Positions 1,858 through 22,174 are shown, counted from the first letter of the stretch. The stretch: 64,000 nucleotides of DNA from Alphaproteobacteria bacterium (GCA_965203385.1 OZ241893.1:269986-333985), one strand, 5' to 3'. Made by a program: numbers and translations. The notes: generated by a model not told the origin, from the sequence alone.

Positions 1858-2636
1858 TGAGCGCGGCGCCGGCATCGCTGGTAGCCGCACTCGCCGAAGC
1901 GCGGCGGGCCGGCCGGCTGATGACGAAGTTCCCTGCTGCCGTCGCGACCGACCCCGACTCGGCGTACGACCTGCAGGTCGAACTGAACGCCGCCCTGGGA
2001 CGCGCGGCCGTCGGGTGGAAGATCGGCTGCACCAACGCCTGGGCCCAGCGGTTGACCGGGACCGACGAACCGTTTTTCGGGCGCATGCACGCGGAAACGA
2101 CGTTCGACAGTCCGGCCGACCTGTCCGGACTCACGTTTGCACAACCCATCGTCGAACCGGAAATCGCCTTTCGTCTCGGCGCCGATCTCACGCCCGACGA
2201 CGCACCGTTTGCGCTTCCCCAGGTCCTGGCGGCCATCGCAGCACTGGCCCCGGCCATCGAGGTGGTGGATTGCCGCTTTGAAGGCGGTTGGTCACCGACC
2301 CTGGCCGAAACGATCATCGACAACGGGGTTCACGGCTGCTTCGTCGCCGGGCCCTGGCACGCGGACTGGGCCGGTCTCGATCGGGCGGAACTCCGGGTCA
2401 CCGTCACGCTCAACGGCGCTCCGGCGGCAGACGGCGTCGGCGCCAACGCACTGGGCGATCCGGCCCACGCGCTGCTGTGGCTGGCGAACCGCGTGACCGG
2501 CCGGGGCGACCGACTCCGCGCGGGTGACGTCGTCACCACCGGAAACATCGCCAGCGAAGCCGTGTTCGGAACACCCGGCGACCGGGCCGTATGCGATTTC
2601 GGCGTACTCGGGCGCGTCGAAGCGAGGTTCCGATGA
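1857..2636 (+). CDS. 2-keto-4-pentenoate hydratase / FAH-fold hydratase family protein
   Basis: Last 259 codons of ORF 1407..2636. The ATG at 1857 overlaps the TGA of the upstream gene (TGATG). GWKIGCT and EPEIAF motifs resemble MhpD-type hydratases. Confidence 0.7.
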   Translation: MSAAPASLVAALAEARRAGRLMTKFPAAVATDPDSAYDLQVELNAALGRAAVGWKIGCTNAWAQRLTGTDEPFFGRMHAETTFDSPADLSGLTFAQPIVEPEIAFRLGADLTPDDAPFALPQVLAAIAALAPAIEVVDCRFEGGWSPTLAETIIDNGVHGCFVAGPWHADWAGLDRAELRVTVTLNGAPAADGVGANALGDPAHALLWLANRVTGRGDRLRAGDVVTTGNIASEAVFGTPGDRAVCDFGVLGRVEARFR

Positions 2637-3184
2637 CGGCGCCCGTACGACACAGCGGAATCTCAACCACCGTCGCCGATCGTTGACAGCGAGTAACTCG
2701 GGGGCGACGCCGAGGCCCATCGGGTAGACTTGGGGCTGCCACGAACCGTGTGGAGGTCGATTTGTCCGTGGTGCGCCCGTTTGGGTTGCCCGCACATGAG
2801 ACACAAGGGACAGGCGGGCCGGATTCCATCGCCTGAAGCAGTCCGTTTCAGCGGGAAACATCCGGATTCCCGGAATCTCGTAAAATCAATATTTTGCTAA
2901 TGATCCACATGGAAGCCGTGAAGCCCCGCCCTATCCCGATTCAGTTCAAGTTCAATTTCTTAAGGCCACCATGCCTGATGCCGGGCATGTAGCGTGTGCT
3001 CCGACTGGCCCTACGATCTGTAGATGGTCAAGGCTCTGAGCCCAACCTGTTCGCCGTATACAGGCCAGCTTCGGCCTGTGATTATCCAAGCTTCTCCAAT
3101 TCACGATTACTGCGAATTATTTCATTACACGTGAAGCATCAATTTTGATTTATCCTGATTGTAATAATTCGCACTTTATGCTAA

Positions 3185-4003
3185 ATGAGAGTCATGAAAG
3201 AAAAAACGGCCCGCCTTCCTCGAGGACGCGCACAGCTTGTCCGGGTACTGTCCGCCGCTGGCGACGTGATTCACGTCGACGACGTGGTGATTGCCCTCCA
3301 GCTCGACCGTACCGCCGCCGCCCAGCGTCTGTCGCGCTGGGTTGAACAGGGATGGCTGAGACGAGTGGGCCGTGGTGCCTATGTCGCCGCTTCTATCGAC
3401 ACCATGGGGTCGGATCGCGTCCTCGATGACCCATGGGTGCTCGTTCCCGCACTCTTCGCGCCAGCCTACATCGGAGGCCGTACGGCAGCCGAGTACTGGG
3501 ATCTGACCGAACAGATCTTCAAGGATGTCTTCGTGATGACCGCCCAGCCGGTGCGTCGGAAACACCAAGAGCGGCACGGTACGCTCTTTTCGCTTAAGCA
3601 CATCCACGAGCAGAAGATCTTCGGTACGAAGAATGTCTGGCGTCATCAGACGCGAGTCCCCGTCTCCGACCCGCATCGAACGATCATCGACATGCTCGAC
3701 GACCCGACGATCGGTGGCGGCATCCAGCATGTATCCGACTGCCTCGCAGCCTACCTGCGACGCGACGATCGCGACGACAGAGAGCTCGTCGATTACGCGG
3801 TGAGCCTCCGCAACGGAGCTGTCTTCAAGCGTCTCGGGTTTCTGGCCGAGCGCTTTCCTGGCGGTGCTGAACTGGGCCATCTTTGCGAGCCGCATCTGAG
3901 CGGCGGTCATGCGAAGCTCGATCCTGCCCAGGATGGGCCGCTCATCGTGACCAAATGGCGGCTCCGTGTGCCGGAGCGCTGGGCTCGCGAGGAAGCGCCG
4001 TGA
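3185..4003 (+). CDS. abiEi: type IV toxin-antitoxin system AbiEi-family antitoxin/transcriptional regulator
   Basis: The 272-aa ORF has an N-terminal winged-helix-like segment (AAAQRLSRWVEQGWLRRVGRGAY) and an AbiEi-like C-terminal domain. It is preceded by a low-GC intergenic region. Its stop overlaps the GTG of the next gene (GTGA). Confidence 0.8.
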   Translation: MRVMKEKTARLPRGRAQLVRVLSAAGDVIHVDDVVIALQLDRTAAAQRLSRWVEQGWLRRVGRGAYVAASIDTMGSDRVLDDPWVLVPALFAPAYIGGRTAAEYWDLTEQIFKDVFVMTAQPVRRKHQERHGTLFSLKHIHEQKIFGTKNVWRHQTRVPVSDPHRTIIDMLDDPTIGGGIQHVSDCLAAYLRRDDRDDRELVDYAVSLRNGAVFKRLGFLAERFPGGAELGHLCEPHLSGGHAKLDPAQDGPLIVTKWRLRVPERWAREEAP

Positions 4004-4980
4004 TCGATAAGCGCGAAATCCTCACGATAGCCCAGCAGATGTCGCTCACGCCCCACATCGTGGAGAAGGACTATGTACTCGGCTGGATGCTCGCCGGCAT
4101 TTATGGGCACGGAGGTCTCGCGGAGAACTGGATATTCAAAGGTGGCACGTGCCTGAAGAAATGCTTCTTCGAGACCTATCGATTCTCGGAGGATCTCGAT
4201 TTCACGCTTCGCGAACCGCAGCATCTTGACGCCGACTTCTTGAAGGGCGCATTTTCCGAAATTGGTGAATGGGTCTACGACCAAACCGGCATTGAGATTC
4301 CGGCCGACAAACAGGAATTCGATATCTACGAGAACCCACGGGGCCAATTCTCGTGCCAAGGCAAGATCAGTTACAAGGGCCCCGTCTCATCGACCCACGC
4401 CTTCCCGCGTATCAAGCTTGACTTGACCGCCGACGAACGGATCGTTCTCCCACCGATCCACGTGCAGATTTTCCATCCATACAGCGATGCTCCGGAAGGT
4501 GGCATCGAAGTCCTGACCTACGATTACACCGAGGCATTCGCGGAGAAGTTCAGAGCGCTCGCGGAACGGACGCGCCCACGCGATCTCTATGACGTCGTAC
4601 ATCTCTACCGGAATACCGAGGCACGTCCGGAACCGAAGCGCTTTATGGAAATCCTGCGCGCCAAGTGTGAATTCAAGGGCATCAGCGTTCCGCGCATGAC
4701 CGATCTTGAACCGCACCGTGCGGAACTTGAGAATGGTTGGATTCACATGCTGGAGCACCAACTCCCCGCGCTGCTCCCGGTCACGACGTTTTGGAACGTG
4801 CTCCCGGAAATCTTCGATTGGCTCCAAGGCGCCGTCGCTCCGCCGCTTACGGCGATGCCTGTCAGTGTCGGCAACACGCTCATCCGCGAGCGTGTAGTCG
4901 ATCTGCCCGCGGGCAGCCGAGGACAGAGTCTCATCGAGATGATCCGCTTTGCTGCTGCAAACGCTCATGAGGCGCGCTGA
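4000..4980 (+). pseudogene. abiEii: AbiEii/AbiGii-family nucleotidyltransferase toxin, 5' portion, reading frame interrupted by an IS element after codon 321
   Basis: GTG at 4000 lies in frame with ORF 3883..4980. EKDYVLGW, FKGGTCLKKCF and RFSEDLDF are AbiEii hallmarks. The last 6 codons and the stop appear to be IS-derived (see IS at 4963..6889). Confidence 0.75.
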
Positions 4981-4996
4981 CCCTCACCCCAGTACA

Positions 4997-5034
4997 TGAA
5001 CACCCGGTCGGGCCGGGCCGAGCTCTAGCGTGGC
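4997..5034. repeat. left (sub)terminal inverted repeat of the IS110-family element
   Basis: TGAACACCCGGTCGGGCCGGGCCGAGCTCTAGCGTGGC matches the reverse complement of 6844..6881 with 2 mismatches. Confidence 0.8.
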
Positions 5035-5385
5035 TTTTTTCGCGGCTGGGTCTTCGTAACTGCACTTCGCGGACAAGGATTTTCCCTACCTTTCGCGGCG
5101 GTTTCTCGCTTTCGTTCACAGGTGCTCCCGGCGGATTTGGAGAGGGCTCCAGAACCGGGATACACTGGGTGCTGGAGACGGAAAGGAGAACGAATTTTTA
5201 GTGTTGGCCTAGACCACGCCAGCAAACTGTTCCGGGTGACCAGGTAGCGTACCCCTGTATGTACCCATCCTTTGCGGATGAGGACGAACGGCAAAATGTA
5301 TGCACCGCGGTTAGCCGAATGGCCACCTTGAGTGCTTCCCCCGGTCACCCACTCCGTCTCCAGCCATCTCACTGGGAGACGACTT

Positions 5386-6853
5386 ATGATTACCGATACC
5401 TTGCATGTTGTCCATTCGCGCGCTGCCGGAGTGGACGTGCACAAGCACCAGCTGACGGCCACCGTCCGCTTGGCCACGGGTGCTGGCGAACCGATGTGCG
5501 AGACGCAGACGTTCCGTGCTTTGGGGCCTGGTCTGGATGCCTTGGCCGAATGGTTGACTTCGCATGCCGTCACCGCGGCGGCCATGGAAGGAACGGGTGT
5601 GTACTGGCGGGCCCCGCTGGACCGGCTGGAGGCCGCCGGGATCGAAGTGCAGTTACTGCACGCCCATCACGTCAAGCAGCTGCGGGGGCGCAAGACCGAC
5701 GTGGAGGACAGCCGCTGGCTGGCGCGCGTCTGTCAGTTCGGACTGTGCCGTCCGAGTCTGGTGCCGAATCAAGAATTCCATGGCCTGCGGCGGATGAGCC
5801 GCTATCGCCGCCAACTGGTGCAGAAACGTAGTCAGACACGGAACCGGATTCAGAAGGAGATCGACGATGCCGGGGTTCGGATCGGCGGCATCCTCTCGGA
5901 TGTCTTCGGCAAGAACGGCCGGATCATTCTGGAGGGCCTGGCGCGAGGCGAGGACCGCGAGACGATCCTCTCGCGTCTGACTCCGCACGTGGCGGAGAAA
6001 ATCAAGCTGCTCGGGGAGGCGCTCACCCTGAAGCTTAGCTGCTCGGGTCGTATGATTCTCAACCACCTGATGACGGACGAGCGCGCCGAACAGGCTCGCA
6101 TCGCGGCCGTCGAGGCGTTTGGCCACCGCCCACAGGCCGTACGCGTTTCGGCCGTACGCTTCCCAGCTGATCCTCCTCCAGACCCTGCCCGGGATCGACC
6201 GGATCGGCGCCGCCGCGATCCTCGCCGAGATCGGCGGTCCCGACGTCACGCCGTTCGCGTCCGCCGAGGCGTTTACGGCCTGGGCCGGACTGGCACCAGG
6301 CAATCACGAGAGCGCCGGCAAACGCCGGAAAGCCACCACGCTCAAGGGCTCCCGCTACCTGCGCACCCTGCTGGTGGAGGCCGCCCACGGAGCCGCACGT
6401 ACCAAGAACTGTCAATTCGCCAGCTACCGGAAGGTGTTGACCGCACGCCGTGGCTATAAGCGCGCCATCGTGGCCACCGCCCACAAGATGGCACGTGCTC
6501 TCTATGCCATGCTGCGGGACGATGTCCCGTATCGCGACCCCGACATCGATTACGAAGCCCTGCTGGTCGATCGCAATGCCCCCCGGTGGCTGCGACAACT
6601 CAAAGAGTGCGGCGTACTCAAGCCGGGAGTGCCAGGACGGCCCGACCCAAGTGCGGCGTGTGGGCGACCACACCTTCCGAATCGACTGGAGTGCCAGGAC
6701 GGCCCGACCCAAACCGGCCTGAAACTTCCTCTGCGCACGATCCCGGACCACCGGCCCGTTGTCCAAAAAACAGGGGAAGACAACACCGCCAAGCCCCGAG
6801 ATCCGGCGCAGATATCGACGACCCAAAGCGTGCGCTCTAGGCCGCCACGCTAG
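5386..6853 (+). pseudogene. IS110-family transposase, apparently frameshifted near 6100-6130
   Basis: The N-terminal DEDD-type half (GVDVHKHQL...MEGTGVYW) lies in the ORF 5332..6459 frame. The C-terminal half (LLQTLPGIDRIGAAAILAEIGG...AGLAPGNHESAGK) lies in the ORF 6119..6853 frame. A frame change is needed to join them. Confidence 0.75.
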
Positions 6854-6881
6854 AGCTCGGCCCGGCCCGCCCGAGTGTTCA
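6844..6881. repeat. right (sub)terminal inverted repeat of the IS110-family element
   Basis: GCCACGCTAGAGCTCGGCCCGGCCCGCCCGAGTGTTCA is the reverse-complement partner of 4997..5034. Confidence 0.8.
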
Positions 6882-7390
6882 CGGCAAACCGCCTGCTTGT
6901 AGAGATCGACTACCGCAACAGACAGGGCAATCGTTCAACACGCGCAATCGAAGCCTACTCACTCCGCCGCTCGCAGGCCGGAGACGTATTGCTCATGGCC
7001 GTACGCGCGGACAGCGGCCGGTCGCGTAGCTATTTGGTCGACAGCATTCTCGGAGTCAAACCCACCCAGACGCCATTCACGCCGCGATACCCAATCGAGC
7101 TGATGCCATCGGGACTTCAGAGCATTCCGAGGACAACCCGTTCCGGTGGACACACAACCGGGGTAGGCCGCAGCACTAGGACCGTTTGGCGTTCACCTGC
7201 ACCACGCAGTGCGACCAGAAACACGAGTTTCCCGGCTGCAAGTGGTCCAACATACGTATTCAAGTGCACCGTTTGCGGAAAGACCTTTTACAGGAAGAAA
7301 TACGATGCCACATTGAACCAACACAGACATAAGCAAACTGGCTATCAATGCTATGGCACAGTCGGTAGACACGTGAAGACAAAATACTAG
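6875..7390 (+). pseudogene. 3' remainder of the interrupted abiEii-like gene (WYL-like segment plus Cys/His-rich tail)
   Basis: The first 5 codons are IS-derived. From codon N-R-L-L the frame continues the upstream ORF once the IS is removed. LVEIDYRNRQGNRSTRAIEAYSL...SRSYLVDSILGV resembles a WYL-type fold. The C-terminus contains CTVCGKTF...HRH...C. Confidence 0.55.
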
Positions 7391-7484
7391 CCCGGATTTC
7401 TCACCAACAAGACTGTACATGGGACCAAAACCGTGGTACAAACCGACGAATCAACACCTTATCGGTGTGCCACGGAGAGGTCCC

Positions 7485-8586
7485 ATGCAACCAGAGTGTA
7501 CCCCGAAGCAGTTGTGTTTTGAAGGCCTGGGTCGCCGTCGAGTGGAGGGGTGTTTCGACGGCGGTCGGCTGACGACGGACGGCGGCGTACTGCTCCTGCG
7601 GGAGGTCGACCAGCGGTTCCGCGTGACGGAGCGTCTGGCTGGCTGCTTCCAGGATCATCGCGGATCATCGCGCAGAAACGCGCATTGAGCATCGTCTGGA
7701 GACGCTGGTCGCCCAGCGGGTACTGGGGCTGGCGGCGGGGTATGAGGATTTGAACGATCACGACCGTCTGCGCACGGACAGCCTGCTGGCGCTGGCAAGC
7801 GGGTGCCAGGATCTCACCGGGGAACAGCGCCGCCGGGAGCGGGACCGGGGACAGGCGCTGGCGGGTTCCAGCACCCTGAACCGGCTCGAGCTCAGCGAGC
7901 CGGACACGGCGGCCGGAGACCGGTACAAGAAAATCGCGGCCGACCCGGCGGCGATGGACTCGCTGCTGGTGCAATTGTTCCTCGAGGCTCATGACGAACC
8001 GCCCGGGGAGATCGTGCTCGATCTGGATGCGACCAACGATCCGCTGTACGGGAACCAGGAGGGGCGGTTCTACCACGGCTAGTACGACGAATACTGCTAT
8101 CTTCCGTTGTACATCACTTGCGGCGACTTCGTCCTGTGCGCCCGGCTGCGTCCGGCCGATGTCGATCCGGCGAAAGGATCGGTGGAGGAACTGAAGCGGA
8201 TCGTGGCCCAGATCCGCGCCGTCTGGCCGAACCTCCCGATCCTGGTGCGCGGCGACGCCGGCTTCTGCCGCGATGAACTCTTGACCTGGTGTGAAGAGAC
8301 TGGCCTCGACTACGTGTTCGGTCTGGCCCGCAATAACCGTCTGGAAAAGTGGCTGGCGAAGGCGCTGCACAAGTCCCGGCGCCGCTGCGCCGCCACGGGG
8401 CAGGCGTCCCGGCGGTTCCGGGACCGGCGTTATCGGACCCAGAAATCCTGGAGCCGCACCCGCCGGGTGGTCGGCAAGGCCGAGTGGCTGCCGGGACTGA
8501 GAGGCGCGAATCCGCGTTTCGTCGTCACCAACCTGCCGGCGGATTCGGTCGGCGCACAGCCGCTGTACGAAAAAGTGTACTGCGCC
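7485..8586 (+). pseudogene. IS1380-family transposase, 5' part (10-bp duplication, in-frame TAG, then truncated by IS21 insertion)
   Basis: MQPECTPKQLCFEGLGRR...TTDGGVLLLREVD is followed by a frame break at the tandem GGATCATCGC duplication. LDLDATNDPLYGNQEG..FYHG is followed by TAG at 8080..8082. The same frame then continues through YDEYCYLPLY...EKVYCA. Confidence 0.85.
7652..7671. repeat. 10-bp tandem duplication (GGATCATCGC x2) that frameshifts the IS1380 transposase
   Basis: Deleting one copy restores FQDHRAETRIEHRLETLVAQRVLGLAAGYEDLNDHD in a single frame. Confidence 0.85.
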
Positions 8587-8793
8587 TGTTGGCGGCGAAA
8601 TAAAACGGCGGGATTCCGGCGGTAAGCCGCGCTTTTCCGAAGGTCGTTTCTTTCCCTATTGTACGACTGCCGGAGCTCCTGCCGCCGGGTGGCAGGAAGG
8701 CGCGTTCGGCGCCGAACGGATCACGGGTGGCTCAGCGGCCTCCTTGAGCCGGCCGGCCGCTGCCTTCGTTGGTTCCGGCCCGTCTGGCCGCTG

Positions 8794-8805
8794 CGTTACG
8801 TAACG
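8794..8805. promoter_or_regulatory. 12-bp perfect palindrome CGTTACGTAACG downstream of the 100-aa ORF
   Basis: Read directly. The same core recurs at 9156..9173 and in copy B. Confidence 0.4.
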
Positions 8806-8826
8806 GTGCTACAGCGGGTACCCGCA

Positions 8827-9129
8827 TCACCCGTCGCGACCGAACCCGCGGGGCAGTTCCTGTTCTGCCAGGGCTTCGAGGTCGAGGTCGTCAAGGGCTT
8901 CGATCGCCTGGTCCAGGAGTTCTGCGGTCGCCGTCGTCTCCAGCGCCTCTGGCAGGGCGTTCCGCCAGTCACGGTATTCCTCCCGGATCGCGATGATGGC
9001 GTCGATGGCGTCGTGCAGCCGCTGCCGGCGCGAGCGCCGGTCCGGCGGCGGGCGCCGCGCCGCCGGTGACTGACCCTCGCGCCGGCGCTGACGAAAGCGC
9101 CGTTGCCGTTCGGCGTTGGACAGTGCCAT
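8827..9129 (-). CDS. hypothetical 100-aa protein carried by the IS21-family element
   Basis: Internal ATG of ORF 8827..9528 (MALSNAERQRRFRQRRREG...PRGFGRDG). It is identical in both copies and has a basic N-terminus and an acidic helical C-terminus. Confidence 0.5.
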   Translation of the reverse strand: MALSNAERQRRFRQRRREGQSPAARRPPPDRRSRRQRLHDAIDAIIAIREEYRDWRNALPEALETTATAELLDQAIEALDDLDLEALAEQELPRGFGRDG

Positions 9130-9155
9130 CGGGTTGCCTTTCTTGATCCCTTGCG

Positions 9156-9173
9156 CCCCGTTACGTAACGGGG
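9156..9173. promoter_or_regulatory. 18-bp perfect palindrome CCCCGTTACGTAACGGGG upstream of the 100-aa ORF (candidate operator)
   Basis: Read directly. It lies 27 bp upstream of the ATG at 9129. Confidence 0.4.
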
Positions 9174-9269
9174 TCCGGAGACCGGGACTTCCGGCCGCCG
9201 CGCAGGCTTCGGCTGGCCGTCGGCACAGGGGTGCGCCGTGACCCCGCCGGCCCGGGCGTTCCGGCGGCG

Positions 9270-10133
9270 TCAGCCTGTCGCGGCGGCGCAGATGACGTCG
9301 TTCCAGTCGGCGTGTTCGGGCGGACGCCGTCGCTGGAACGCGACCTGCGAGGGGACCTCGAGTTGACGGCGCAAGGCTTCGGCCTGGCGCTCTCCGGCCT
9401 CGTCGTGGTCCTGTGCGAGGACGACGGTGCGGACGTTGGGTAGGGTGCGGGCGGCGAGTCCGATCTGCTCGCGTTGTCGGCGCGAGGGGGCGCCGGCGGT
9501 GGAGAGGAAGGCCTGGCTGGGGTGGCACTGCTCAATCTGGGCCAGGCTGAGGGCGTCGACGGCGCCTTCGGTGATGACGAGGGTTTTCAGGTCGGCGGCG
9601 TGTCCGGCGCGGACGGCGAACAGGCTGCGGGAGCCGCCGGTGGCGAAGCGTCTCGCGCCGTCGGGCGGGCCGATCTCGAAGCCGGTGAGGCGGCGGTGGC
9701 GGTCGCGGTGGGCGAAGAGGACGTGGCCGTGGCGGTCGCGGCGGATCAGCGGGCGGGCGGCGGCGAGCGTCTCCGGGCGGATGCCGCGGCCGACCAGCCA
9801 GGCCGGCGCCGGGTCCGGTACGGCCGCGTGCCAGTGGCGGCGGAAGTCGCGCGCGGTGCCCGCGGGTTTGCCGTAGCGGGTGCGGATCTCGGCGAAGGAG
9901 AGGCCGCGACGGAGCAGGAAGTCGATCGCGGTACCGTGGTCATCGCTATCGAGGGTACTGAAGTAGACCCAGTGTCCGTTGGGGCACAGCTTCGTGACGA
10001 GTTTCGCCTGGCCCGGCGCGCGGAGCACGGGGTTCGCGCGGGTCGAGGCCTGGGGATCGCGGACGTATCCCCAGTCCGCCGCGATGCCCTCGAGCGGCCG
10101 GCGCTTGAGCGCGTCGAAGTCGACGTAGGTCAT
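9270..10133 (-). CDS. Toprim-domain protein with DUF3991-like N-terminal region (primase-like)
   Basis: The 287-aa ORF starts MTYVDF... and its ATG overlaps the istB stop (ATGA). VITEGAVDALS and LAQDHDEAG look like Toprim Glu and DxD motifs. Confidence 0.65.
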   Translation of the reverse strand: MTYVDFDALKRRPLEGIAADWGYVRDPQASTRANPVLRAPGQAKLVTKLCPNGHWVYFSTLDSDDHGTAIDFLLRRGLSFAEIRTRYGKPAGTARDFRRHWHAAVPDPAPAWLVGRGIRPETLAAARPLIRRDRHGHVLFAHRDRHRRLTGFEIGPPDGARRFATGGSRSLFAVRAGHAADLKTLVITEGAVDALSLAQIEQCHPSQAFLSTAGAPSRRQREQIGLAARTLPNVRTVVLAQDHDEAGERQAEALRRQLEVPSQVAFQRRRPPEHADWNDVICAAATG

Positions 10134-10831
10134 CCGGCTTCGCGCCGGGTGCGCCACGAATCACCGTCGATGGTGATGAGGGCGGCGTCGTGCATCAGTC
10201 GGTCGACGGTGCCGGCGATGCCGGCGGCGCTGGGGAAGACGCGGTCCCACTGGGCGAAGGCCAGCGTGGTGGTGACCAGGGTGGAGCGGCGCTGGTAGCG
10301 CCGCGAGACGAGGGCGTAGAGGAGGTCGGCCGCGGGGCTCTTGAGGGTCACATATCCGATCTCGTCGAGGACCAGCAGGCGGGGCCGGGCGAGGATTCCG
10401 AGGCGGCGGCGCAGTTCGCTTCTCGAGGAGATCTCGACGAGTTTGTCGAGCAACTCCGGCGCTTTCTCGAAGCGGACGGTGTGGCCGTGCAGGAGCGCCT
10501 GGTGCGCGACGTTGGCGGCGATCATGGTCTTGCCGGTGCCCTGTCCGCCGACGAGCACGGCGTTGTCGGCCCGCTCGATGAAGGCGAGGCTCATCAGGGC
10601 CTCGACGCGGTCGCGGCTCAGGTCGCGCGGCCAGGTCCAGTCGAAGTCCGCCAGCGGCTTGAAGGCCGGCAGCCGCGCCCCGGCGCGGCGGCGGTCGTAG
10701 CTGCGGGTGTGGCGCACCCGTTCCTCGCTGGCGATCAGTTCCTCGACCCAGCCGGCGCTGCCGACCTCCTCCCAGCGTTCGAGCAGTCCGCGGAGGCCGA
10801 GGGCGGCGGCCCGTTTCCTGAGGTCGCTCAT
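10130..10831 (-). CDS. istB: IS21-family helper ATPase IstB
   Basis: 233 aa with a Walker A (VGGQGTGKT) and Walker B (LLVLDEIGY). The start overlaps the istA stop (ATGA). Confidence 0.9.
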   Translation of the reverse strand: MSDLRKRAAALGLRGLLERWEEVGSAGWVEELIASEERVRHTRSYDRRRAGARLPAFKPLADFDWTWPRDLSRDRVEALMSLAFIERADNAVLVGGQGTGKTMIAANVAHQALLHGHTVRFEKAPELLDKLVEISSRSELRRRLGILARPRLLVLDEIGYVTLKSPAADLLYALVSRRYQRRSTLVTTTLAFAQWDRVFPSAAGIAGTVDRLMHDAALITIDGDSWRTRREAG

Positions 10832-12321
10832 GACGCGTCCCGGTCGGCCGCGGCGGGCCGGTCGTAGGCGTCGAGGCCGGTCGCCCGGGGAGTCGTGCCG
10901 CGGCCGTCGCGGTCGTCGTCGGTGAGGCTGACAGGCGGCAGGCCCCGCTGGCGGCGGCGCTCCTCGAGGATGGCGCGCACCGTTTCGGGGTGATATGACC
11001 CGCGATCGTGCGCCATGGCGATCCCCCGGTCGACCTCGTCGGCGCCGTGCGTGTCGAGCAGCTTGGTCAGGATCCGGGCGCAGTACGTGACGTTCCGGCC
11101 CCGATGCCCGGCGTGCGCGAGCATCTCCTCCGCCCGCGGCACGGCGCGCAGCAGCCGGTCGCGCAGGCTCATGGCCCGGCCCTGCCGCTTGCGCGCCGCC
11201 AGCGCCCGGGCATGCTCCGGGTCGCTGACGGCCTGCTGCCGGTCGTAGCAGCGCCGGTGGCGCGCGACCTCGCGGGTACCGTCGAGGAGGCGGACGGTGC
11301 TGCGGTCGGCGGCGAGGGTCAGCGTCGCTCCGGCGAAGTCGGGCGGGACGCTGTAGTCGTTCGTATCGAACCGTGCGTAACAGGTCCGGTCGATGCGCGC
11401 CGGGCGGATCTCGTGGCACGAGAAGGGTGCGTCCGGCAGCGGCACCAGCATCGGCTTTTCCCGCTCGTAGGCGTCCCGGACGAGCTGGCGGTCGTCGTCC
11501 GGCCAGGGCCGCTCGGCGGCGATGCCGGCGCACCACGCCCGGGCCGCGGCGTTGAGTTCGTCGAGCGGGGCCGAGAGGTCGCGACCGGCGAAGAAGCTGG
11601 TGCGCACGAAGCGGACGCGGCGTTCCACGCGCCCCTTCTCCTGCGGCCGCCGGGGCCAGGCGGCGCTCGGCTCGAAGGCGTAGTGGGCGGCCAGCGCGAG
11701 CAGGGTCGAATGGAAGGTGACGGCCTTGCCCCGGCGCGTGATCACGGCGCTCTTGAGGTTGTCGAACAGGAGCCTTCTGGGCACACCGCCGAACGCTGCG
11801 AAGGCCTCGACATGGCCCTGCAGGAAGCTCGGCATCCGCGCGTCGTAAAACAGGCTGAGAGAGGTCTGGCGCGAATAGCTGAGGGTCACCAGCAGCCCCA
11901 TCAGCGGGCGCCGCGCCTGGCCGATATCGACCTTCCCGAACTCGGCCCAGTCGACCTGCGCCTGCTCCGCCGGCAGGAAGCGGAGCCGCAGCGACGGCTC
12001 GGGCCGCCGGGCGGGCCGGAGGTCGAGGGCGCGCAGGCTGTGGCGAAAGTGATCCTCCCCGCCCTGGTAGCCCCGCGCCTTGACCTGCCGCCAGAGCGTG
12101 CCGGCCGGCAGCCGCGGCTCCTCTTCGAGCTGCTTCCGGATGAAGGGCACGAAGGTGTCGATGAACTTCGCCCGCGGCCGCCGCTCCGCGCCGGCCGCCC
12201 GCAGCGCCCGCGTCACCGTACCGTGGTGTACGCCGAGATGCCGCGCGATGGTCCCGACCGGCCAGCCCTCGGCCCGCGACAGCCGCACGATCGTCGACCG
12301 CATCTCCTCGTCGATAGCCAT
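10828..12321 (-). CDS. istA: IS21-family transposase IstA
   Basis: 497 aa with an N-terminal HTH (GWPVGTIARHLGVHHGTV) and a DDE integrase core (QVDWAEFG...LFDNLKSAV). Confidence 0.9.
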   Translation of the reverse strand: MAIDEEMRSTIVRLSRAEGWPVGTIARHLGVHHGTVTRALRAAGAERRPRAKFIDTFVPFIRKQLEEEPRLPAGTLWRQVKARGYQGGEDHFRHSLRALDLRPARRPEPSLRLRFLPAEQAQVDWAEFGKVDIGQARRPLMGLLVTLSYSRQTSLSLFYDARMPSFLQGHVEAFAAFGGVPRRLLFDNLKSAVITRRGKAVTFHSTLLALAAHYAFEPSAAWPRRPQEKGRVERRVRFVRTSFFAGRDLSAPLDELNAAARAWCAGIAAERPWPDDDRQLVRDAYEREKPMLVPLPDAPFSCHEIRPARIDRTCYARFDTNDYSVPPDFAGATLTLAADRSTVRLLDGTREVARHRRCYDRQQAVSDPEHARALAARKRQGRAMSLRDRLLRAVPRAEEMLAHAGHRGRNVTYCARILTKLLDTHGADEVDRGIAMAHDRGSYHPETVRAILEERRRQRGLPPVSLTDDDRDGRGTTPRATGLDAYDRPAAADRDAS

Positions 12322-12354
12322 GAAATCGCCTCCCGTTGTGTCTCCATGACGCGA

Positions 12355-12795
12355 TCAGGGGTCCGCCAGCACCAGATGCGAGCACACCCGACCGCAGATG
12401 ACGCATCGAGGCACGGATTCGCGCCTCGATCGCGCCGGAAACACCCGACATAGGGGCTCGCGCCGGGGTCCGGAAGAGTGGTCCGTAACGGTTGGGCGGA
12501 AAGCGGCGCCAGCCGGGGCCGAAGGAGCGGCGCGGAACGGGCCCGCAGCCGCCGCCCGGGCGGCCAGGCGCGCCCGGAGCGCCTGACGCCTCCGGTAGCG
12601 CTGCTGACGGATCCGGCCCGTCTCGCGCCCCCGCTCGGTGCGGCGGTAGCGCCTCCGCGCCGCCCGGCGGTTCTCGACCCGGGACCGCTCGCTGCAGGCC
12701 CGGGAGCAGTACATCTGGCCGCGGTCGCAGGACCGGCAGATCACGACCTGCCGACGGCACCGCTGGCACGGGAACAGGCGTCCGGTCCGGCACAT
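12355..12795 (-). CDS. Cys-rich, Arg-rich hypothetical protein (zinc-ribbon-like) upstream of istA
   Basis: 146 aa. The N-terminus has CQRC-x6-CRSC-x6-C-x3-C and the C-terminus has CVICGRVC. It is intact in both copies. High-GC background makes a spurious ORF possible. Confidence 0.45.
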   Translation of the reverse strand: MCRTGRLFPCQRCRRQVVICRSCDRGQMYCSRACSERSRVENRRAARRRYRRTERGRETGRIRQQRYRRRQALRARLAARAAAAGPFRAAPSAPAGAAFRPTVTDHSSGPRREPLCRVFPARSRRESVPRCVICGRVCSHLVLADP

Positions 12796-13218
12796 CGCTC
12801 CGCCCGAGAGCGAGGTAGACCCAAACGCCGGAATGCCGGATACTCCACGGGAGTTCGGTCCCCGTGACCGGCTCGTTCAGGTGCGGCGCCGGGATTCTGG
12901 GTGAATCTGTGCCGGCGCCGCATCACTCTCTTCTTCCCTGCTGCGATACCACGCGGACACGGCCGTGGCAAAGCCGGCCCGACCGAACCGGCGACAAGAA
13001 CGCACTCGATCTATCCCGAATGGTGCCGTGCGCCCGACCCCTGCCTCAGGCGCGAATCTCACTCCGACACAGTACGGAAATCCGGCCGCCGGCCGGCGCA
13101 CACGATCGATACCCCACGGTACGACTCGACCAATAGGACCGTACAATGGGAAAAGGAACGATCCTGGCCAAAACGCGGCTTACCGCCAGAATCCCGCGCT
13201 TTTTCGCAGCCATCAACA

Positions 13219-13562
13219 GCGCCCGAGGGGACATGGAGAACCGCATCAAGGAACACCAACTCTGGCTCTTTGCCGATCGGACCTCGACCGCCAAGATGCG
13301 TTCCAACCAGTTGCGACTGTACTTCTCGACCTTCGCCGGGATGCTGATGACCCTGCTGCGCCGGTTTGGCCTGTCGGGCACCGCGCTGGCCCGGGCCACG
13401 GCCGACACGATCTGCACCCGGCTGTTCAAGATCGGTACCCGCATCACCGTCAGCCGGCGCCGGATCCGCATCGCGTTCGCGTCGGTCTATCCGCTCCAGT
13501 CGCTGTTCGCCCACGTGCTCGCGGCCCTGCGGGCGCCGCCGGCCCGCGCCGGCCCCGCCTGA
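13219..13562 (+). pseudogene. IS1380-family transposase, 3' part
   Basis: The frame of ORF 13146..13562 reads ..ARGDMENRIKEHQLWLFADRTSTAKMRSNQLRLYFS.., continuing the 5' part across the IS21 insertion. Confidence 0.85.
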
Positions 13563-13875
13563 CCGCCCACCCACGGACCGTTCACTACAGGGATTCGACG
13601 CGCTGCTCTGGAGCGCCGCCGGCGGAGTTTGTCCTGCGTCCGGTTATTTCCACGTGCCCGCCGCCGAATCGGCCTCATGAGACCCCTCACCGACCTCCGA
13701 GAGCGGGTTGCCAGGCCTCCGTGGTGCGATTCCCGACCCGAACGCCGGCTGAATCGGTGTTCAGTGCGCTCAGTGCCGTCGTGTCGGGCGCTGGTGAGAA
13801 ATGCGCGCTAGCCGGCTACTACCAGAGATTAAGAACATATTATGGATAAAAAAAAGAATATACTCCTCAAACCAA

Positions 13876-14371
13876 CAAGGGGGCGACCGGCTTCCGATTG
13901 TCCTGTACAATAGCAGATCCCGATGGTCGGCTCCGGAGGAAATCGGCAATCTGATCGCCCCGGCCGGCGTGACCCTCGCACCGGTCCAGTTGCATCAGCG
14001 CTATCTTCTGGCGGATGAACACACACTTCGTGTCACGGGTCTTCCGAAGGACAACCTCGTGACGATGCAGATCGCGCTGGAACAGGGACCGCATGGAGCC
14101 GAATCTGCAAAGGCTGGCCGTGCTGCTGCAGGGCCCGGGCGACGAGAGCCTGAGACGGATCTTCGGGGAATGGGCACAGGGGCTTTTCGAGCGAACCGAC
14201 CTGGCATCGACAGATCCGGGTCTGACCGTTGAGCTTCGTCGTCTCGGAGAAACAGGAGGATTGGAAGAAATGGCAACGATATTCGCTGAAGCTGACGAGA
14301 AAACCATGGCTATCTGCATGATCATCCCGATTTGGGGAGTTTCCGAAGATTTTTCTTCGGAAACGGCGTGA
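13876..14371 (+). pseudogene. Rpn/YhgA-like (PD-(D/E)XK) nuclease/putative transposase, C-terminal fragment with a frameshift
   Basis: RLPIVLYNSRSRWSAPEEIGNLI parallels RLPLVIPIVFFNGRKPWTVPLSIVDMI of the full-length paralog at 60861..61823. It lacks the N-terminal half, and the frame changes near 14090-14100. Confidence 0.55.
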
Positions 14372-14376
14372 CCGGC

Positions 14377-15336
14377 ATGTCCCTGCTCAAGGCGAACCCC
14401 GTCTACAAGCCGTTCCGCTACCCGTGGGCCTACGAAGCCTGGCTGCAGCAGCAGCGCATCCATTGGCTTCCGGAAGAAGTCCCGCTCGCCGAAGACGTCA
14501 AGGACTGGAGCGAGAAACTCACCGAGGCCGAGCGAAACCTGCTGACCCAGATCTTCCGGTTCTTCGTCCAGTCGGACGTCGAGGTCAACAACTGCTACAT
14601 GCGCCACTACGCACGCGTGTTCGAACCCACCGAGGTCCAGATGATGCTCGCCGCGTTCTCCAACATGGAGACGGTGCACATTGCCGCGTATTCGCATCTC
14701 CTCGATACGGTCGGCATACCGGAAGTCGAATATGAAGCCTTCCTCAACATCAAGGAGATGCGCGACAAGTACGACTACATGCAGGGGTTCGGCACGGAAA
14801 CCAAGGAAGACATCGCCCGCACCCTCGCCATGTTCGGAGCCTTCACCGAGGGGATTCAGCTCTTCGCCAGTTTCGCGGTACTGCTGAATTTTCCGCGCTT
14901 CAACAAGATGAAGGGAATGGGGCAGATCATCACGTGGTCGGCCCGGGACGAGACCCTGCACACGAACTCGATCGTGCGCCTCTACCGGACCTTTTTGCAG
15001 GAAAACCCGGATATCGATACCGACGGGCTGGCGAAAGACCTGCTGGAAGCCTGCGAAACCGTCGTCGGCCACGAGGATGCCTTCATCGACCGGGCCTTCG
15101 AAATGGGCGGGGTCGAGGGCCTCACCGGCGACGAGGTGAAGGCCTACATCCGGTATATCGCCGACCGCCGCCTCGACCGTCTTGGCCTGCCGCCCCTTTA
15201 TGACGCCAAGGTCAACCCGCTGCCGTGGATGGACGAAATGCTCAATGCCCTTGAGCACACCAATTTCTTCGAGAACCGTTCCACGGAATACTCGCGGGCC
15301 GCAACACGGGGAACCTGGGAAGAAGCCTTCGGCTGA
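14377..15336 (+). CDS. nrdB: ribonucleotide-diphosphate reductase beta subunit (R2)
   Basis: The ATG at 14377 lies within ORF 14332..15336. Motifs are IHWLPEEV, FFVQSDVEVNN and TVHIAAYSHLLD. The ferritin-like R2 pattern is clear. Confidence 0.85.
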   Translation: MSLLKANPVYKPFRYPWAYEAWLQQQRIHWLPEEVPLAEDVKDWSEKLTEAERNLLTQIFRFFVQSDVEVNNCYMRHYARVFEPTEVQMMLAAFSNMETVHIAAYSHLLDTVGIPEVEYEAFLNIKEMRDKYDYMQGFGTETKEDIARTLAMFGAFTEGIQLFASFAVLLNFPRFNKMKGMGQIITWSARDETLHTNSIVRLYRTFLQENPDIDTDGLAKDLLEACETVVGHEDAFIDRAFEMGGVEGLTGDEVKAYIRYIADRRLDRLGLPPLYDAKVNPLPWMDEMLNALEHTNFFENRSTEYSRAATRGTWEEAFG

Positions 15337-15362
15337 CGCCGCCGGGAACTTGTCCGGCGCGG

Positions 15363-16568
15363 TCAGTCGGCTGACGCCGGACGGTCCTCCTGCAGGCTGG
15401 CCAGCGCCGCCGCCGCACCGCCGGCCTGATGGGGCACGCCCGCATCCGCCAGGGCCAGTTCCGTCGCCCCCAGAGAACCGAGAATCATCGCTTCGCTCAG
15501 CGCCCCGAGGTGACCGATACGGAATCCCTTCGCTGCCCACTGGCCGATGGCCGCCGCGTGGGCGACACCGTACCGATCCCGGCACAGCGTCCGGAACGCC
15601 TCGGGATCCGCCCCTTCGGACAGCAGGATCGCGGTGACCGAATCACTGTGTTCGGCCGGGTTGGTGCTGACCAGTTCGAGCCCCCATCCCGCCACGGCCG
15701 CCCGTACCGCCCGGGCGATCCGGCGGTGCCGGGCACATACCCTGTCGGGCCCCTCTTCGAACAGCATCTCGAGAGCTGTTGCCAGCCCGTACCAAAGCGG
15801 AATGGCCGGCGTGGAAATGAATCCCAGGGAGCCTTCCGGTCCGAGGTGCTGATCCCAGTCCCAGAAGTAGCGCGGGCAGCCGCCCGCCGACCGGGCGGCT
15901 TCGAGCGCCCGCTCTGACAACGCATTGAAGGCCAGCCCGGGCGGCAGCATGAGCCCCTTCTGGCTGCCGCCCACACAGATATCCACACGCCACGCATCAT
16001 GGCGGTAGGGGATCGACGCAAAGGAAGAAATGACATCGGCGATCAGCAGCGCCGGATGCCCGGCGGCATCCATTGCCGACCGGACCGCCGGAAGATCGCT
16101 CAACACGCCCGTCGACGTTTCGTTGTGCACCACGCAGACGGCCTTGATGCGTTGCGACCCGTCCGCCCGCAGGCGCTCTTCCACCCGGTTGGCATCAACC
16201 CCGGTGCGCCAGTCGCCGGGAAGGTAGTCGACCTCCAGGCCCAGCCGCTCGGCCATTTCCTTCCAGCGCTGCGAAAAGAAGCCGGTTTCCGCCATGAGCA
16301 CGCGGTCGCCGGGACTCAGCGGGTTGACCAGCGCGGCCTCCCACGCGCCGTGGCCGGGCGCACTCATCAGCGCCACCGGTGACCGGGTCTCGAGGAGTTT
16401 CTTCAGGCCCAGGTAGGCCCGCTCGGCAACCGCAAGGAACTCCGGGCTCCGGTGGTCCGCCTGCGGTGCCGCCATTGCGGCCGTGATCCGCCGCGGGATG
16501 TTGGTCGGCCCGGGCGTGTGCAGGAATTGCCAGCCGGGGCGCCCCGGCCGATCAGTGGGATCAAACAA
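15363..16568 (-). CDS. class V PLP-dependent aminotransferase (serine-glyoxylate/alanine-glyoxylate type)
   Basis: 401 aa, with HTPGPTNIP near the N-terminus, VVHNETSTG and GGSQKGLMLPPGL. Confidence 0.8.
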   Translation of the reverse strand: MFDPTDRPGRPGWQFLHTPGPTNIPRRITAAMAAPQADHRSPEFLAVAERAYLGLKKLLETRSPVALMSAPGHGAWEAALVNPLSPGDRVLMAETGFFSQRWKEMAERLGLEVDYLPGDWRTGVDANRVEERLRADGSQRIKAVCVVHNETSTGVLSDLPAVRSAMDAAGHPALLIADVISSFASIPYRHDAWRVDICVGGSQKGLMLPPGLAFNALSERALEAARSAGGCPRYFWDWDQHLGPEGSLGFISTPAIPLWYGLATALEMLFEEGPDRVCARHRRIARAVRAAVAGWGLELVSTNPAEHSDSVTAILLSEGADPEAFRTLCRDRYGVAHAAAIGQWAAKGFRIGHLGALSEAMILGSLGATELALADAGVPHQAGGAAAALASLQEDRPASAD

Positions 16569-16578
16569 GAAAGTGGTC

Positions 16579-18891
16579 TCAGGCAGTGCGGCGGGAGGCA
16601 GTATCGATCAGCGACCAGATCCGCTCCGGTGTTGCCGGCATGTCAACATGTTCCACACCGTACGGCTGAAGCGCATCGACAACGGCGTTGATGATGGCGG
16701 GTGGAGAGCCGATGGCCCCCGCTTCCCCGGCCCCCTTCATTCCCAACGCGTTGGTGGTCGACGGTACGACATTATACCTGAAATCGATGGACGACGGCGC
16801 GTTATCGGCCCGCGGCATGGCGTAATCCATGAACGAGGCGCTCAGCAGTTGACCGGTGTCGGAATCGTATTGCGTACGCTCCAGCAGTGCCTGTCCGAGC
16901 CCCTGTACGATTCCGCCCTGGACCTGGCCCTCGAGCAGCACCGGATTGATGACGGTGCCGAAATCGTCCACCACCGTGTACTGCACGATCTGCACCACCC
17001 CGGTTTCCAGATCGATCTCCAGTTCACACACGTGGGTGCCGTTCGGAAACGTGGCGGCGGGCGGAGTCCATCTGGCGGCTTCCGACAGCGGGTCGCCGGC
17101 CTCGGAAGCGCGCCGGGAGGCCTCGCCGAGAGAGACCGAAAGATCGGTGCCCGGCACGATGAACTGGCCGTCCCGGAACTCGATGTCATCGGCCGATGCC
17201 TCCAACTGGTCGGCTGCGAGACTGCGACCCCGCCGAATCACCTGCAGCGCGGCATCCGACAACGCCGCGCCGCCCACCGGAACCGAACGGGACCCGCCGG
17301 TCCCGGACCCGAATCCGATCACGGAAGTATCGCCCTGGACGATGTCGATCTGGTCGAACGAAAGCCCCAGGCGCTCGGACACGATCTGCCGGTACGCGGT
17401 TTCGTGGCCCTGCCCGTTGGACTGGGTCCCGATCAGCACCCGGGCGCGGCCGTCCGCATCGATCTCGATGGTGGCCTCTTCGGGCCCGCCCCCCGAGCAG
17501 GCCTCGATGTAACTCGCGAGCCCGATTCCGCGAAGCCGTCCGTGTCGCTCGGAGAAGTCGCGCCGGGCCGGAAACTCATCCCAGTACGATTTCGCGATGG
17601 CATCCTCCATGTTCTTGACGAAATCGCCGGTGTCGTAGGTCTCCCCCATGGGCGTGGTGAACGGCATCTCGTCCGCACGGATGAAGTTGCGCCGCCGAAT
17701 CTCGCCCGGGGCAAGGCCGAGTTCCCGGGCGGCCTTGTCCACCAGCCGCTCGACGACAAACGCCGCTTCGGGCCGGCCGGCGCCCCGGTAGGCATCGACC
17801 GGCGGCGTGTTGGTGAACACCCCCTGCACGTGCGCATACACCGCCGGGGTCCGGTAGCAGCCAGCGAGCATTGCGGTGCCCGCCAGCGTCGGAACGAAAA
17901 TTCCGAAGTTCGAGCACTGGGCGCCCAAGTTCGCAACCGTATGCACGCGAAGCCCGAGGAAGCGGGCGTCCGCATCCAGCGCGAGCTCGGCCCGGGTAAC
18001 GTGGTCGCGGCCGTGGGTGTCCGAAACAAAGGCCTCGGAACGCTCGGAAATCCAGCGGACCGGCCGCCCCAGCGCCCGGGCGGCAAACAGCACGTGCACG
18101 TACTCCGGATACAGAAAGATCTTCATCCCGAAACCGCCGCCCACGTCACTCGTGCGCACCTGCATTTCGCTGGCCTTGACCCCCAGGATCTTCGCGAGCT
18201 GCCCCTGGATCAGGTGCACCCCCTGCGAACCACAGGTAATCGAGTAACCGCTGCCCTCCTCGTAGCTGCCGATGGCCGCCCGGCATTCCATCGGGTTCGG
18301 GACCAGTCGATTGTTCACCAGTTCGAGCGAGACCACCCGCGCCGCCTTCCCGAACGCGGCCTCGGTCTCGGCCTCGTCGCCAAGGGCCCAGTCGAAGCAA
18401 CGATTGCGGGCAATGGTGTCGTGTACCTGCGGAGCATTCTCGACCAGGGCGGCAGCGGTATCGGTGACCGCCGGGCGCTCGGCATAGTCGACCTCCACCA
18501 GTTCGGCGGCATCGCGCGCGAGGTTCGCCGTTTCGGCCACGACGATGGCCACCGGCTCCCCGACATATCGCACCCGTCCGTCCGCAAGCGCCGGACGCGT
18601 CGGAACCTGGTGGTCCGTTCCGTCCCGGTTCTTCCCTGCGTACAGGCAAGGCAGGGTACCGACGTCCGCCGCCGCCAGGTCCTTGGCGGTAAAGACGCCG
18701 AGCACACCTTCGGCCGCGGACGCAGCACGGGTGTCGACGGAACGAATGTCTGCACAGGCCATCGGCGAGCGGACCACCTGCATCCAGGTCTGGCCGGGAA
18801 GCACGTGGTCGGCCGTGTAGCGTCCCTTGCCGGTGAGAAAGCGGGGATCTTCGGCCCGCTTCACGGACCGACCAATACCGAATAGGTTCAT
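16579..18891 (-). CDS. xanthine dehydrogenase-family molybdopterin-binding large subunit, form-II CoxL-like
   Basis: The ATG at 18891 (MNLFGIGRSVKRAEDPRFLTGKGRY) lies within ORF 16579..19107. It contains the AYRGAGR motif. No CoxS/CoxM-like genes are adjacent. Confidence 0.8.
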   Translation of the reverse strand: MNLFGIGRSVKRAEDPRFLTGKGRYTADHVLPGQTWMQVVRSPMACADIRSVDTRAASAAEGVLGVFTAKDLAAADVGTLPCLYAGKNRDGTDHQVPTRPALADGRVRYVGEPVAIVVAETANLARDAAELVEVDYAERPAVTDTAAALVENAPQVHDTIARNRCFDWALGDEAETEAAFGKAARVVSLELVNNRLVPNPMECRAAIGSYEEGSGYSITCGSQGVHLIQGQLAKILGVKASEMQVRTSDVGGGFGMKIFLYPEYVHVLFAARALGRPVRWISERSEAFVSDTHGRDHVTRAELALDADARFLGLRVHTVANLGAQCSNFGIFVPTLAGTAMLAGCYRTPAVYAHVQGVFTNTPPVDAYRGAGRPEAAFVVERLVDKAARELGLAPGEIRRRNFIRADEMPFTTPMGETYDTGDFVKNMEDAIAKSYWDEFPARRDFSERHGRLRGIGLASYIEACSGGGPEEATIEIDADGRARVLIGTQSNGQGHETAYRQIVSERLGLSFDQIDIVQGDTSVIGFGSGTGGSRSVPVGGAALSDAALQVIRRGRSLAADQLEASADDIEFRDGQFIVPGTDLSVSLGEASRRASEAGDPLSEAARWTPPAATFPNGTHVCELEIDLETGVVQIVQYTVVDDFGTVINPVLLEGQVQGGIVQGLGQALLERTQYDSDTGQLLSASFMDYAMPRADNAPSSIDFRYNVVPSTTNALGMKGAGEAGAIGSPPAIINAVVDALQPYGVEHVDMPATPERIWSLIDTASRRTA

Positions 18892-19116
18892 GGGCACTCC
18901 TGAGAGGGGACGCCCTGCCGCGCCCGTTTGACGGTCATGATACGGGGAGGGTTGCGTTCGACAAGGCGGGCCGGGTTGACCGGCACGGTCCGGTCGCCCG
19001 ATCCGTGCTTCCGTGCCGTCAGCGAACAACTTCCGCTGAACGGATGGAGCCCGTACTTGCTGCAATGAGGTGCTTCGAAGAATTTCGGCGGAGCACCGGA
19101 GCTCCACCCCTTGATT

Positions 19117-19556: not shown

Positions 19557-19583
19557 TTCTCTACCCTCCGTTCATTCGGGTTG

Positions 19584-20183: not shown

Positions 20184-20192
20184 CCGCCGACA

Positions 20193-21797: not shown

Positions 21798-21808
21798 TGA
21801 TGTTCCTT

Positions 21809-22162: not shown

Positions 22163-22174
22163 GTGTCGTATATA

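Follow-up and report, generated by a model that had tools for sequence, protein, structure and literature searches.

A probable AbiE operon with a long, WYL-containing toxin gene interrupted by an IS110-family element in an alphaproteobacterial genome

Introduction

The AbiEi/AbiEii systems of Lactococcus lactis and Streptococcus agalactiae and the MenA/MenT systems of Mycobacterium tuberculosis are bicistronic operons in which the antitoxin gene overlaps the toxin gene. Their AbiEii/MenT toxins, of about 290-300 amino acids (aa), end after a helical C-terminal domain, and AbiE of Mesorhizobium huakuii is also of the short type, with a whole operon of 1.42 kb. DUF1814 toxins extend tRNA 3' ends with added nucleotides and block aminoacylation (PMC7450476, PMC10435456), and binding of the antitoxin leads to auto-phosphorylation of an active-site Thr or Ser that turns the enzyme off, the phospho-acceptors being T39 in MenT1, S78 in MenT3 and T65 in S. 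agalactiae AbiEii (PMC11375011, bioRxiv 10.64898/2026.01.19.700257). Here we describe a locus in a stretch of 64,000 nucleotides (nt) from an Alphaproteobacteria bacterium (GCA_965203385.1, OZ241893.1:269986-333985; the whole stretch is called the window, and positions are counted from its first letter), which is very likely a horizontally acquired AbiE (AbiEi/AbiEii) toxin-antitoxin, or abortive-infection, operon of a widespread long-toxin subfamily, with its toxin gene split by an insertion sequence (IS).

The locus shares with the L. lactis, S. agalactiae and M. tuberculosis systems the bicistronic layout and the overlapping antitoxin gene, and its toxin has the same Pfam family, nucleotidyltransferase motifs and MenT3 fold, whereas the long form adds about 180 aa consisting of a WYL domain, a basic linker and a C2HC tail. 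WYL domains are known to bind single-stranded DNA (ssDNA) or single-stranded RNA (ssRNA), depending on the protein (PMC9122601; PDB titles DriD-ssDNA and CapW-ssDNA). A fusion of WYL to an 'AbiGII-like nucleotidyltransferase (DUF1814)' was listed by Makarova, Anantharaman, Grishin, Koonin and Aravind in 2014 (PMC4012209), and a passage of the same paper proposes that WYL domains regulate defence effectors including AbiG-type nucleotidyltransferases.

Results

The abiEii frame opens with GTG at 4000 and runs, as a reading made from the sequence only had stated, to ..IRFAAAN, with its last base at 4962; it is followed by AHEAR and TGA (4963-4980), that is by a stop as claimed, preceded by five codons and not six. 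GCAAAC occurs at 4957-4962 and again at 6884-6889, and the frame stays open for 487 aa when 4963..6889 (1927 bp) is removed, in agreement with the earlier reconstruction. The gene is split by the IS after codon 321, which makes the locus a disrupted member of the AbiE systems. Its 5' part (4000..4962, plus strand, codons 1-321) encodes the complete DUF1814 nucleotidyltransferase core and the first WYL helix, and its 3' part (6890..7390, plus strand, codons 322-487 and the stop) the WYL beta-barrel, a basic disordered linker and a zinc-ribbon tail. A search with the 487-aa reconstruction against a large protein collection gave thousands of matches, the best 120 of which all had E ≤ 1e-225 and covered 81-100% of the reconstruction; most of these were 475-488 aa long, with 67-84% identity and 100% query coverage. 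The junction motif IRFAAANRLLVEIDY was unbroken and nearly invariant across 29 aligned full-length homologs. Given homologs at such E values and the conserved junction motif, the reconstruction is not a chance frame. At the DNA level, the empty site in homologs has one GCAAAC (..GC(C/T)GCAAAC|CG..) with nothing in between.

The list of open reading frames (ORFs) in the window holds two separate entries here, 3883..4980 and 6875..7390, as would be expected if AbiEii natively ended at the stop at 4978-4980 and were followed by a separate WYL/zinc-finger gene, the in-frame join being a coincidence. Such an arrangement is practically inconceivable, being ruled out by the homologs, the empty-site DNA and the IS copies: more than 100 single-protein homologs of about 486 aa read across the junction, the Pfam WYL match spans it, and the stop with its five preceding codons is IS sequence that is present in three other copies of the element. 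Moreover, the 3' piece has a single start codon at or upstream of the junction, GTG 6875, which lies within the IS (ORF 6875-7390), so that the earlier statement that the downstream part has no independent start outside the IS was borne out; possible in-frame starts further down (TTG, then ATG near 6995) sit within the WYL domain. The 3' part is now a promoterless remnant of 166 codons without a start of its own outside the IS.

The operon itself is conserved among the homologs. In three independent contexts (Thiotrichales-type metagenome-assembled genome contigs, a 7-Mb contig and a Mesorhizobium genome) a 269-aa abiEi-like gene precedes the toxin gene with an identical 4-bp overlap, and the abiEi/abiEii arrangement recurs in loci L001-L006. 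Full-length homologs on RefSeq plasmids of Rhizobium and Candidatus Thiodictyon bear the name 'AbiEii/AbiGii toxin family protein', with AbiEi annotated alongside two of those on Rhizobium plasmids, and one homolog is called 'WYL domain-containing protein'. In the window, the abiEi antitoxin/transcriptional regulator gene (3185..4003, plus strand) is an intact 272-aa ORF, whose start is likely ATG 3194, giving 269 aa; it shares 4 bp with abiEii, its stop overlapping the start of that gene. The protein passes the Pfam cutoffs for both AbiEi_1 and AbiEi_4, scores 432 bits with the PADLOC AbiEi model PDLC02271 and shares 88% identity over its full length with the AbiEi of homolog locus L001, from which it is taken to be intact. 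The window has the features of an AbiE system, namely a DUF1814/AbiEii domain, polymerase-beta-type motifs and an adjacent upstream AbiEi gene.

Some homologs were found in other settings. One of 653 aa (P0099) combines AbiEii with a Toprim_3 domain, which may point to a further fusion or disruption; an intact homolog in locus L004 (7751-13461) lies near other defence genes, ThsB-TIR and TIR_2, and another in locus L005 (7545-11264) near a 1239-aa SIR2_2 protein.

The interrupting element (4959..6888, plus strand) is a defective copy of an IS110-family IS, with ends AAAC...GGCAAA, an AAA core at both junctions and a net insertion corresponding to the deleted length. It has a 38-nt inverted repeat, 95% complementary, with the left copy at 4997..5034, beginning 35 nt inside the left AAA core, and the right copy at 6844..6881, ending 4 nt before the right AAA core; a 25-mer of this repeat has only two sites within the window, with 0 expected in shuffles. 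The DEDD transposase gene (5386..6722, plus strand) is broken, its halves lying in different frames, with Pfam DEDD_Tnp_IS110 in 5386-6117 and Transposase_20 from 6119. A protein search with the transposase gave a match of 95% identity (P0121), which could be placed on no contig, and through its 90% cluster an intact 429-aa version (P0391). P0391 reached 248 bits (cutoff 140) with the NCBIfam model NF033542, 'IS110 family RNA-guided transposase', in line with the family proposed from the sequence. The gene for P0391 is found on three further contigs, all from one ENA assembly, as part of three intact, mutually identical IS copies of 1883 bp (L009 3574-5456, L010 216-2098 and L011 3574-5456), which align to window 4959-6888 with 97% identity over the full BLAST alignment.

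Each of the four insertion sites has different flanks. Since three copies in other surroundings set the ends, the inverted repeats lie inside these ends, as subterminal repeats, and AHEAR with its TGA (4963..4980, plus strand), the tail that ends the truncated toxin ORF, is IS sequence, being present in the three other copies next to unrelated flanks; the sequence-only reading had placed this tail outside the inverted repeat, and its derivation from the IS is now clear. Neither AbiEii homologs ending at the stop and followed by a separate gene, nor IS ends coinciding with the 38-bp repeats, were found. The four insertion sites have nothing but AAA in common at both junctions, so that GCAAAC, although present at both junctions of the window as first described, is not a sequence of the insertion sites in general. 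It is no 6-bp duplication, the extra G, C and C coming from a chance likeness of the target to the IS ends.

Compared with the intact copies, the window IS carries two lesions and is otherwise identical to them. At 6114-6142 the sequence is scrambled and longer by 13 nt, and at 6626-6659 there is a 34-nt tandem-like duplication, as a result of which the 25-nt GGAGTGCCAGGACGGCCCGACCCAA is present twice. Because both lesions shift the transposase frame, the copy is defective. The lesions may be real mutations or long-read assembly errors, and the sequence cannot separate the two. These unusual indels, together with the location of the other IS copies on long-read contigs with 2x coverage from one ENA assembly, could also be taken to indicate that the insertion as a whole is an assembly artefact, a repeat-induced chimera of long-read metagenome sequences, and that abiEii is intact in the organism. 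Against this, both junctions are exact, the AAA core and the IS ends are as in the three independent copies and the frame is restored to the base. A chimera would not be expected to reproduce a precise simple insertion, which makes this explanation very improbable.

The element has the properties of IS110-family members, i.e. DEDD_Tnp_IS110 and Transposase_20 domains, identical ends, a short core and no real target duplication. The earlier assignment to the IS1111 type holds for the subterminal repeats and not for the rest of the layout. In the IS1111 group as delimited by Siddiquee et al. (bioRxiv 10.1101/2024.04.26.591405), the longer non-coding region lies downstream of the transposase gene and about 7 nt on the left and 3 nt on the right extend beyond the repeats, with exceptions acknowledged in the same paper. 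Here, the non-coding regions measure 427 nt upstream and 166 nt downstream, and the extensions, core excluded, are 35 nt on the left and 4 nt on the right. The element thus mixes IS1111-like repeats with an IS110-like upstream non-coding region. With the RNA-guided IS1111/IS110 elements such as ISEc11 and IS621 it shares DEDD and Transposase_20 domains, oriented insertion and a short shared core, as well as subterminal inverted repeats, long non-coding regions and the lack of a true duplication; it differs from IS1111 in its longer non-coding region upstream (IS110 type) and its left extension of 35 nt as compared to about 7.

No match to a bridge or seek RNA was obtained with Rfam. K-mer searches of the IS non-coding regions for guides gave only matches of 7-8 nt. 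Two of them, GGCGGTTT (5097-5104, complementary to the target AAACCGCC) and CAGCAAAC (5220-5227), were rejected, as by a rough estimate their matches are of chance length and they misfit the other three targets. An exact 20-mer of the inverted repeat gave only two chance 21-nt matches in GTDB representative genomes. The left target flanks of the window (4940-4948) and of L009 (3555-3563) share GATCCGCTT at an offset of -19 to -11 from the core, with 30/63 positions alike between the two left flanks; the L009 insertion site was considered as another WYL gene and found not to lie in one. The shared flank may reflect a target preference of the guide RNA; no sequence complementary to GATCCGCTT was found in the IS.

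The intact toxin, of about 486 aa, has four parts. Residues 1 to about 275 form a DUF1814 nucleotidyltransferase and residues 307-383 a WYL Sm-like barrel; a basic, Arg-rich, disordered and variable linker (about 397-438) comes next, and then a C2HC zinc-ribbon-like tail (440-487). On the DNA, the WYL domain is encoded by 4918..7075 (plus strand), interrupted by the IS after aa 321, and the tail by 7244..7387 (plus strand), with putative ligands C447, C450, H466 and C475. Pfam AbiEii (PF08843) matches residues 31-262 with 132.4 bits (cutoff 22.5, E 3e-38), and PADLOC AbiEii (PDLC02317, 396 positions) aligns end to end with residues 1-401, WYL included, with 691 bits; NCBIfam held no model for the long toxin. 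In a Foldseek search of the PDB, the N-terminal part matched MenT3/TglT (Rv1045) with a target-normalised template modelling score of 0.61-0.66, identity to solved nucleotidyltransferase structures being only 11-13%. The motifs KGGT (47-50, with KGG at 47-49), EDLDF (64-68), KLDL (139-142) and EKFRALAERTRPRDLYDV (182-199) are invariant or nearly so, align with those of AbiGII 9hlo_B and of 6y56_A, a PDB chain deposited as 'uncharacterized protein', and are all encoded upstream of the IS. Dy et al. are said to have given the family motifs, in 2014, as hG[GS], [DE]h[DE]h and h[DE]h with a C-terminal K..A...R....RD..D.

The WYL assignment rests on profile and fold. Pfam WYL (PF13280) matches residues 312-378 (profile positions 3-69 of 70), across the IS junction, and divergent relatives of the C-terminal module score 25-34 bits with WYL. 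An AlphaFold2 model of the closest intact homolog (mean predicted local distance difference test, pLDDT, 81.5) shows the nucleotidyltransferase, a helix (307-320) and a five-strand barrel with pLDDT of about 90 over 307-383, a disordered stretch (397-438) and then a small beta-rich tail; in a model of the C-terminal 166 aa of the window toxin (mean pLDDT 83.8) both folded parts reach pLDDT 93-97, the zinc tail itself 95-97. Foldseek matched the barrel to the WYL domains of DriD (ssDNA-bound), BrxR, PafBC and CapW, with probability 1.00 and root-mean-square deviations of 1.5-2.8 Å over 58-70 columns. As in a WYL domain, the profile matches at the gathering score and a helix is followed by a five-strand Sm/SH3-like barrel. 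This helix-preceded Sm-like barrel is shared with DriD, PafBC, CapW and BrxR, by analogy with which a likely ligand is single-stranded nucleic acid. In those four proteins, however, an N-terminal winged helix-turn-helix and WYL control transcription, whereas in the long toxin WYL is C-terminal to an enzyme; they have a WCX dimerisation domain after WYL, where the long toxin has the zinc ribbon. Within the sequence, the conserved arginines R316, R322, R347, R367 and R387 in or near WYL are the only hint of a nucleic-acid or nucleotide ligand.

In the tail, the putative ligands C447-x2-C450-x15-H466-x8-C475 are invariant in a 30-sequence alignment; in divergent alignments (to 30-50% identity) both Cys are invariant and the H/C at least 90% conserved. 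Sub-threshold Pfam matches at 441-467 were to Zn_ribbon_8 (14.7 bits, cutoff 34.4) and to zf-C2H2 types (12-13 bits), and Foldseek gave no specific match for the zinc tail. An exhaustive HMMER search with the C-terminal 166 aa retrieved 514 cluster representatives. In the best 150 of these the module was always C-terminal, with the WYL part in 146/150 and the zinc tail in 122/150, and the N-terminal partner, where the sequence sufficed, was mostly AbiEii, many entries being fragments. More than 60 unexplained N-terminal residues were present in 13/150; ten were scanned and one had a phage-integrase SAM-like domain, possibly a gene-call artefact. Taken with the homologs, Pfam and Foldseek, these results support the proposal that the ancestral gene encoded AbiEii, WYL and a Cys/His tail in one protein. 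Of the two domains for which the earlier reading had suggested profile searches of the C-terminal extension, WYL gave a match at the cutoff and the zinc finger sub-threshold matches only.

At columns at least 90% conserved in intact homologs, the window toxin differs at 5/178 before the IS and at 3/65 after it; the differences are all conservative and their counts are within the range of the intact homologs themselves. Neither piece has stops or frameshifts. Without excess substitutions, stops or frameshifts in either piece, the insertion appears evolutionarily recent. The IS went in where the first WYL helix ends, at an AAA core within codons 320-321, and left a 326-aa ORF (nucleotidyltransferase core and AHEAR) and the 166-codon remnant. 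It would have acquired its two frameshifting insertions afterwards, so that it would have no transposase of its own. It is possible, but rather unlikely, that the truncated toxin is still active at canonical length and is held by the intact AbiEi as a working toxin-antitoxin module, a reading that overlaps with that of a split long toxin. The IS lies downstream of the whole nucleotidyltransferase core with every catalytic motif, the 5' part is without decay and AbiEi is intact; furthermore, the characterised AbiEii/MenT toxins have 287-293 aa and no such tail. On the other hand, conservation of the WYL domain and zinc tail is strong throughout the subfamily, implying that they are needed, and a very recent insertion explains the absence of decay equally well.

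The GC content is 0.57-0.60 over the abiE operon (2500-5000 and 6500-7500) as compared to 0.68-0.74 in the flanks, which is consistent with horizontal acquisition. Flanking genes include those for a PhyH dioxygenase (799-1857) and an FAA hydrolase (ORF 1407-2636). About 30 bp past the abiEii stop a second decayed mobile element adjoins the locus, an IS1380-like remnant (7419-8625) with a DDE_Tnp_1_4 transposase in at least three frames (ORFs 7419-7688, 7750-8082 and 8107-8625). An inverted duplication of 4,633 bp (8587-13219 and 23841-28473; 98.9% identity, no gaps) contains a Toprim/DUF3991 ORF (9270-10157, minus strand) and an IS21-like element with an istA-like ORF (10828-12321, minus strand), its copies enclosing about 10.6 kb (13220-23840). 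The locus lies in a decaying, IS-rich, horizontally acquired patch with other mobile-element debris. Further along, a ResIII-type helicase/restriction subunit (30558-33362, minus strand) and an N6_N4 DNA methylase (34209-36812, minus strand) resemble a type III restriction-modification pair and form a second defence locus some 25 kb away from abiE.

Discussion

Nothing was found that contradicts the anatomy of a long AbiEii toxin gene split by an IS110-family element, and the points that weigh against this interpretation concern function and weak profile scores. The Pfam WYL score equals the gathering cutoff exactly (21.8 bits), and no curated Pfam zinc-finger or zinc-ribbon model scored above threshold for the tail. 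The literature searched gives no ligand, substrate or phenotype for any long-form AbiEii. A defence role of AbiE is not universal, as S. agalactiae AbiE in E. coli gave no protection against 32 phages. In addition, the truncated 326-aa product is close to the canonical AbiEii/MenT length (about 290-300 aa) and may still be active.

By analogy with MenT1, MenT3 and S. agalactiae AbiEii, the nucleotidyltransferase would add nucleotides to tRNA 3' ends and block translation, and AbiEi would repress the operon and neutralise the toxin by inducing auto-phosphorylation of the KGGT Thr; T50 of this invariant motif is the likely phospho-acceptor, by comparison with the characterised toxins. Single-stranded nucleic acid is the probable ligand of the WYL domain, basic linker and zinc ribbon, as it is for other WYL domains. 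This ligand is considered most likely because characterised WYL domains bind ssDNA or ssRNA and because of the proposal in the above-mentioned passage of Makarova et al. The WYL/zinc module could act as an in-cis sensor licensing the toxin or provide a grip on its substrate (tRNA), roles that are not separable here. In either case the insertion most likely removes regulation or substrate recruitment, and what is left would be a short toxin, crippled or deregulated, together with an antitoxin that is intact.

Both roles can be put in more specific terms. The C-terminal module may, at clearly less than even probability, have no sensor role and serve in oligomerisation or as a constitutive substrate arm that binds the tRNA acceptor end or some other RNA. 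The WYL domains of PIF1, WYL1, DriD and CapW bind single-stranded nucleic acids, MenT-type toxins act on single-stranded tRNA 3' ends and the linker is Arg-rich, all of which would suit such an arm, whereas most characterised WYL domains are regulatory ligand sensors and the short AbiEii/MenT toxins bind tRNA without it. Plausibly, though again at less than even probability, the WYL domain and C2HC tail could instead form an in-cis sensor of single-stranded nucleic acid derived from infection or of a nucleotide signal, activating the toxin independently of loss of the antitoxin, a reading that bears on the subfamily and not on the broken copy in the window. In the HMMER search the WYL and C2HC module was found almost only on AbiEii toxins. 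If true, such in-cis sensing would be a regulatory mode not so far demonstrated for DUF1814 (Type IV/VII) toxins, with the C2HC tail an undescribed obligate partner of this WYL clade.

The sequence-only reading had regarded the architecture of the toxin as one not previously described. This does not stand, since the WYL-AbiEii architecture is already catalogued and common, and the window holds a disrupted further member: the domain fusion listed by Makarova et al. in 2014 and that of PADLOC PDLC02317 are identical to that of the reconstructed toxin, and RefSeq annotations name full-length homologs. The window differs in that the passage of Makarova et al. concerned names no zinc-ribbon tail, the PADLOC model ends before the tail and the copy is disrupted. 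No experimental study of a WYL-fused long AbiEii, and no mention of the zinc tail of long AbiEii, was found in a literature search, and the tail appears to be undescribed.

The window itself thus provides one more example of a defence gene knocked out by an IS. The IS, with four mapped sites and a mixture of IS1111 and IS110 features, could aid work on the rules of guide RNAs. Long AbiEii with WYL and zinc ribbon is abundant across Proteobacteria and other phyla, whereas the AbiEii/MenT toxins studied biochemically in the literature covered are of the short form. The long form would therefore be a handy system for finding out what a WYL domain senses when it is wired to an effector enzyme and not to a transcription factor.

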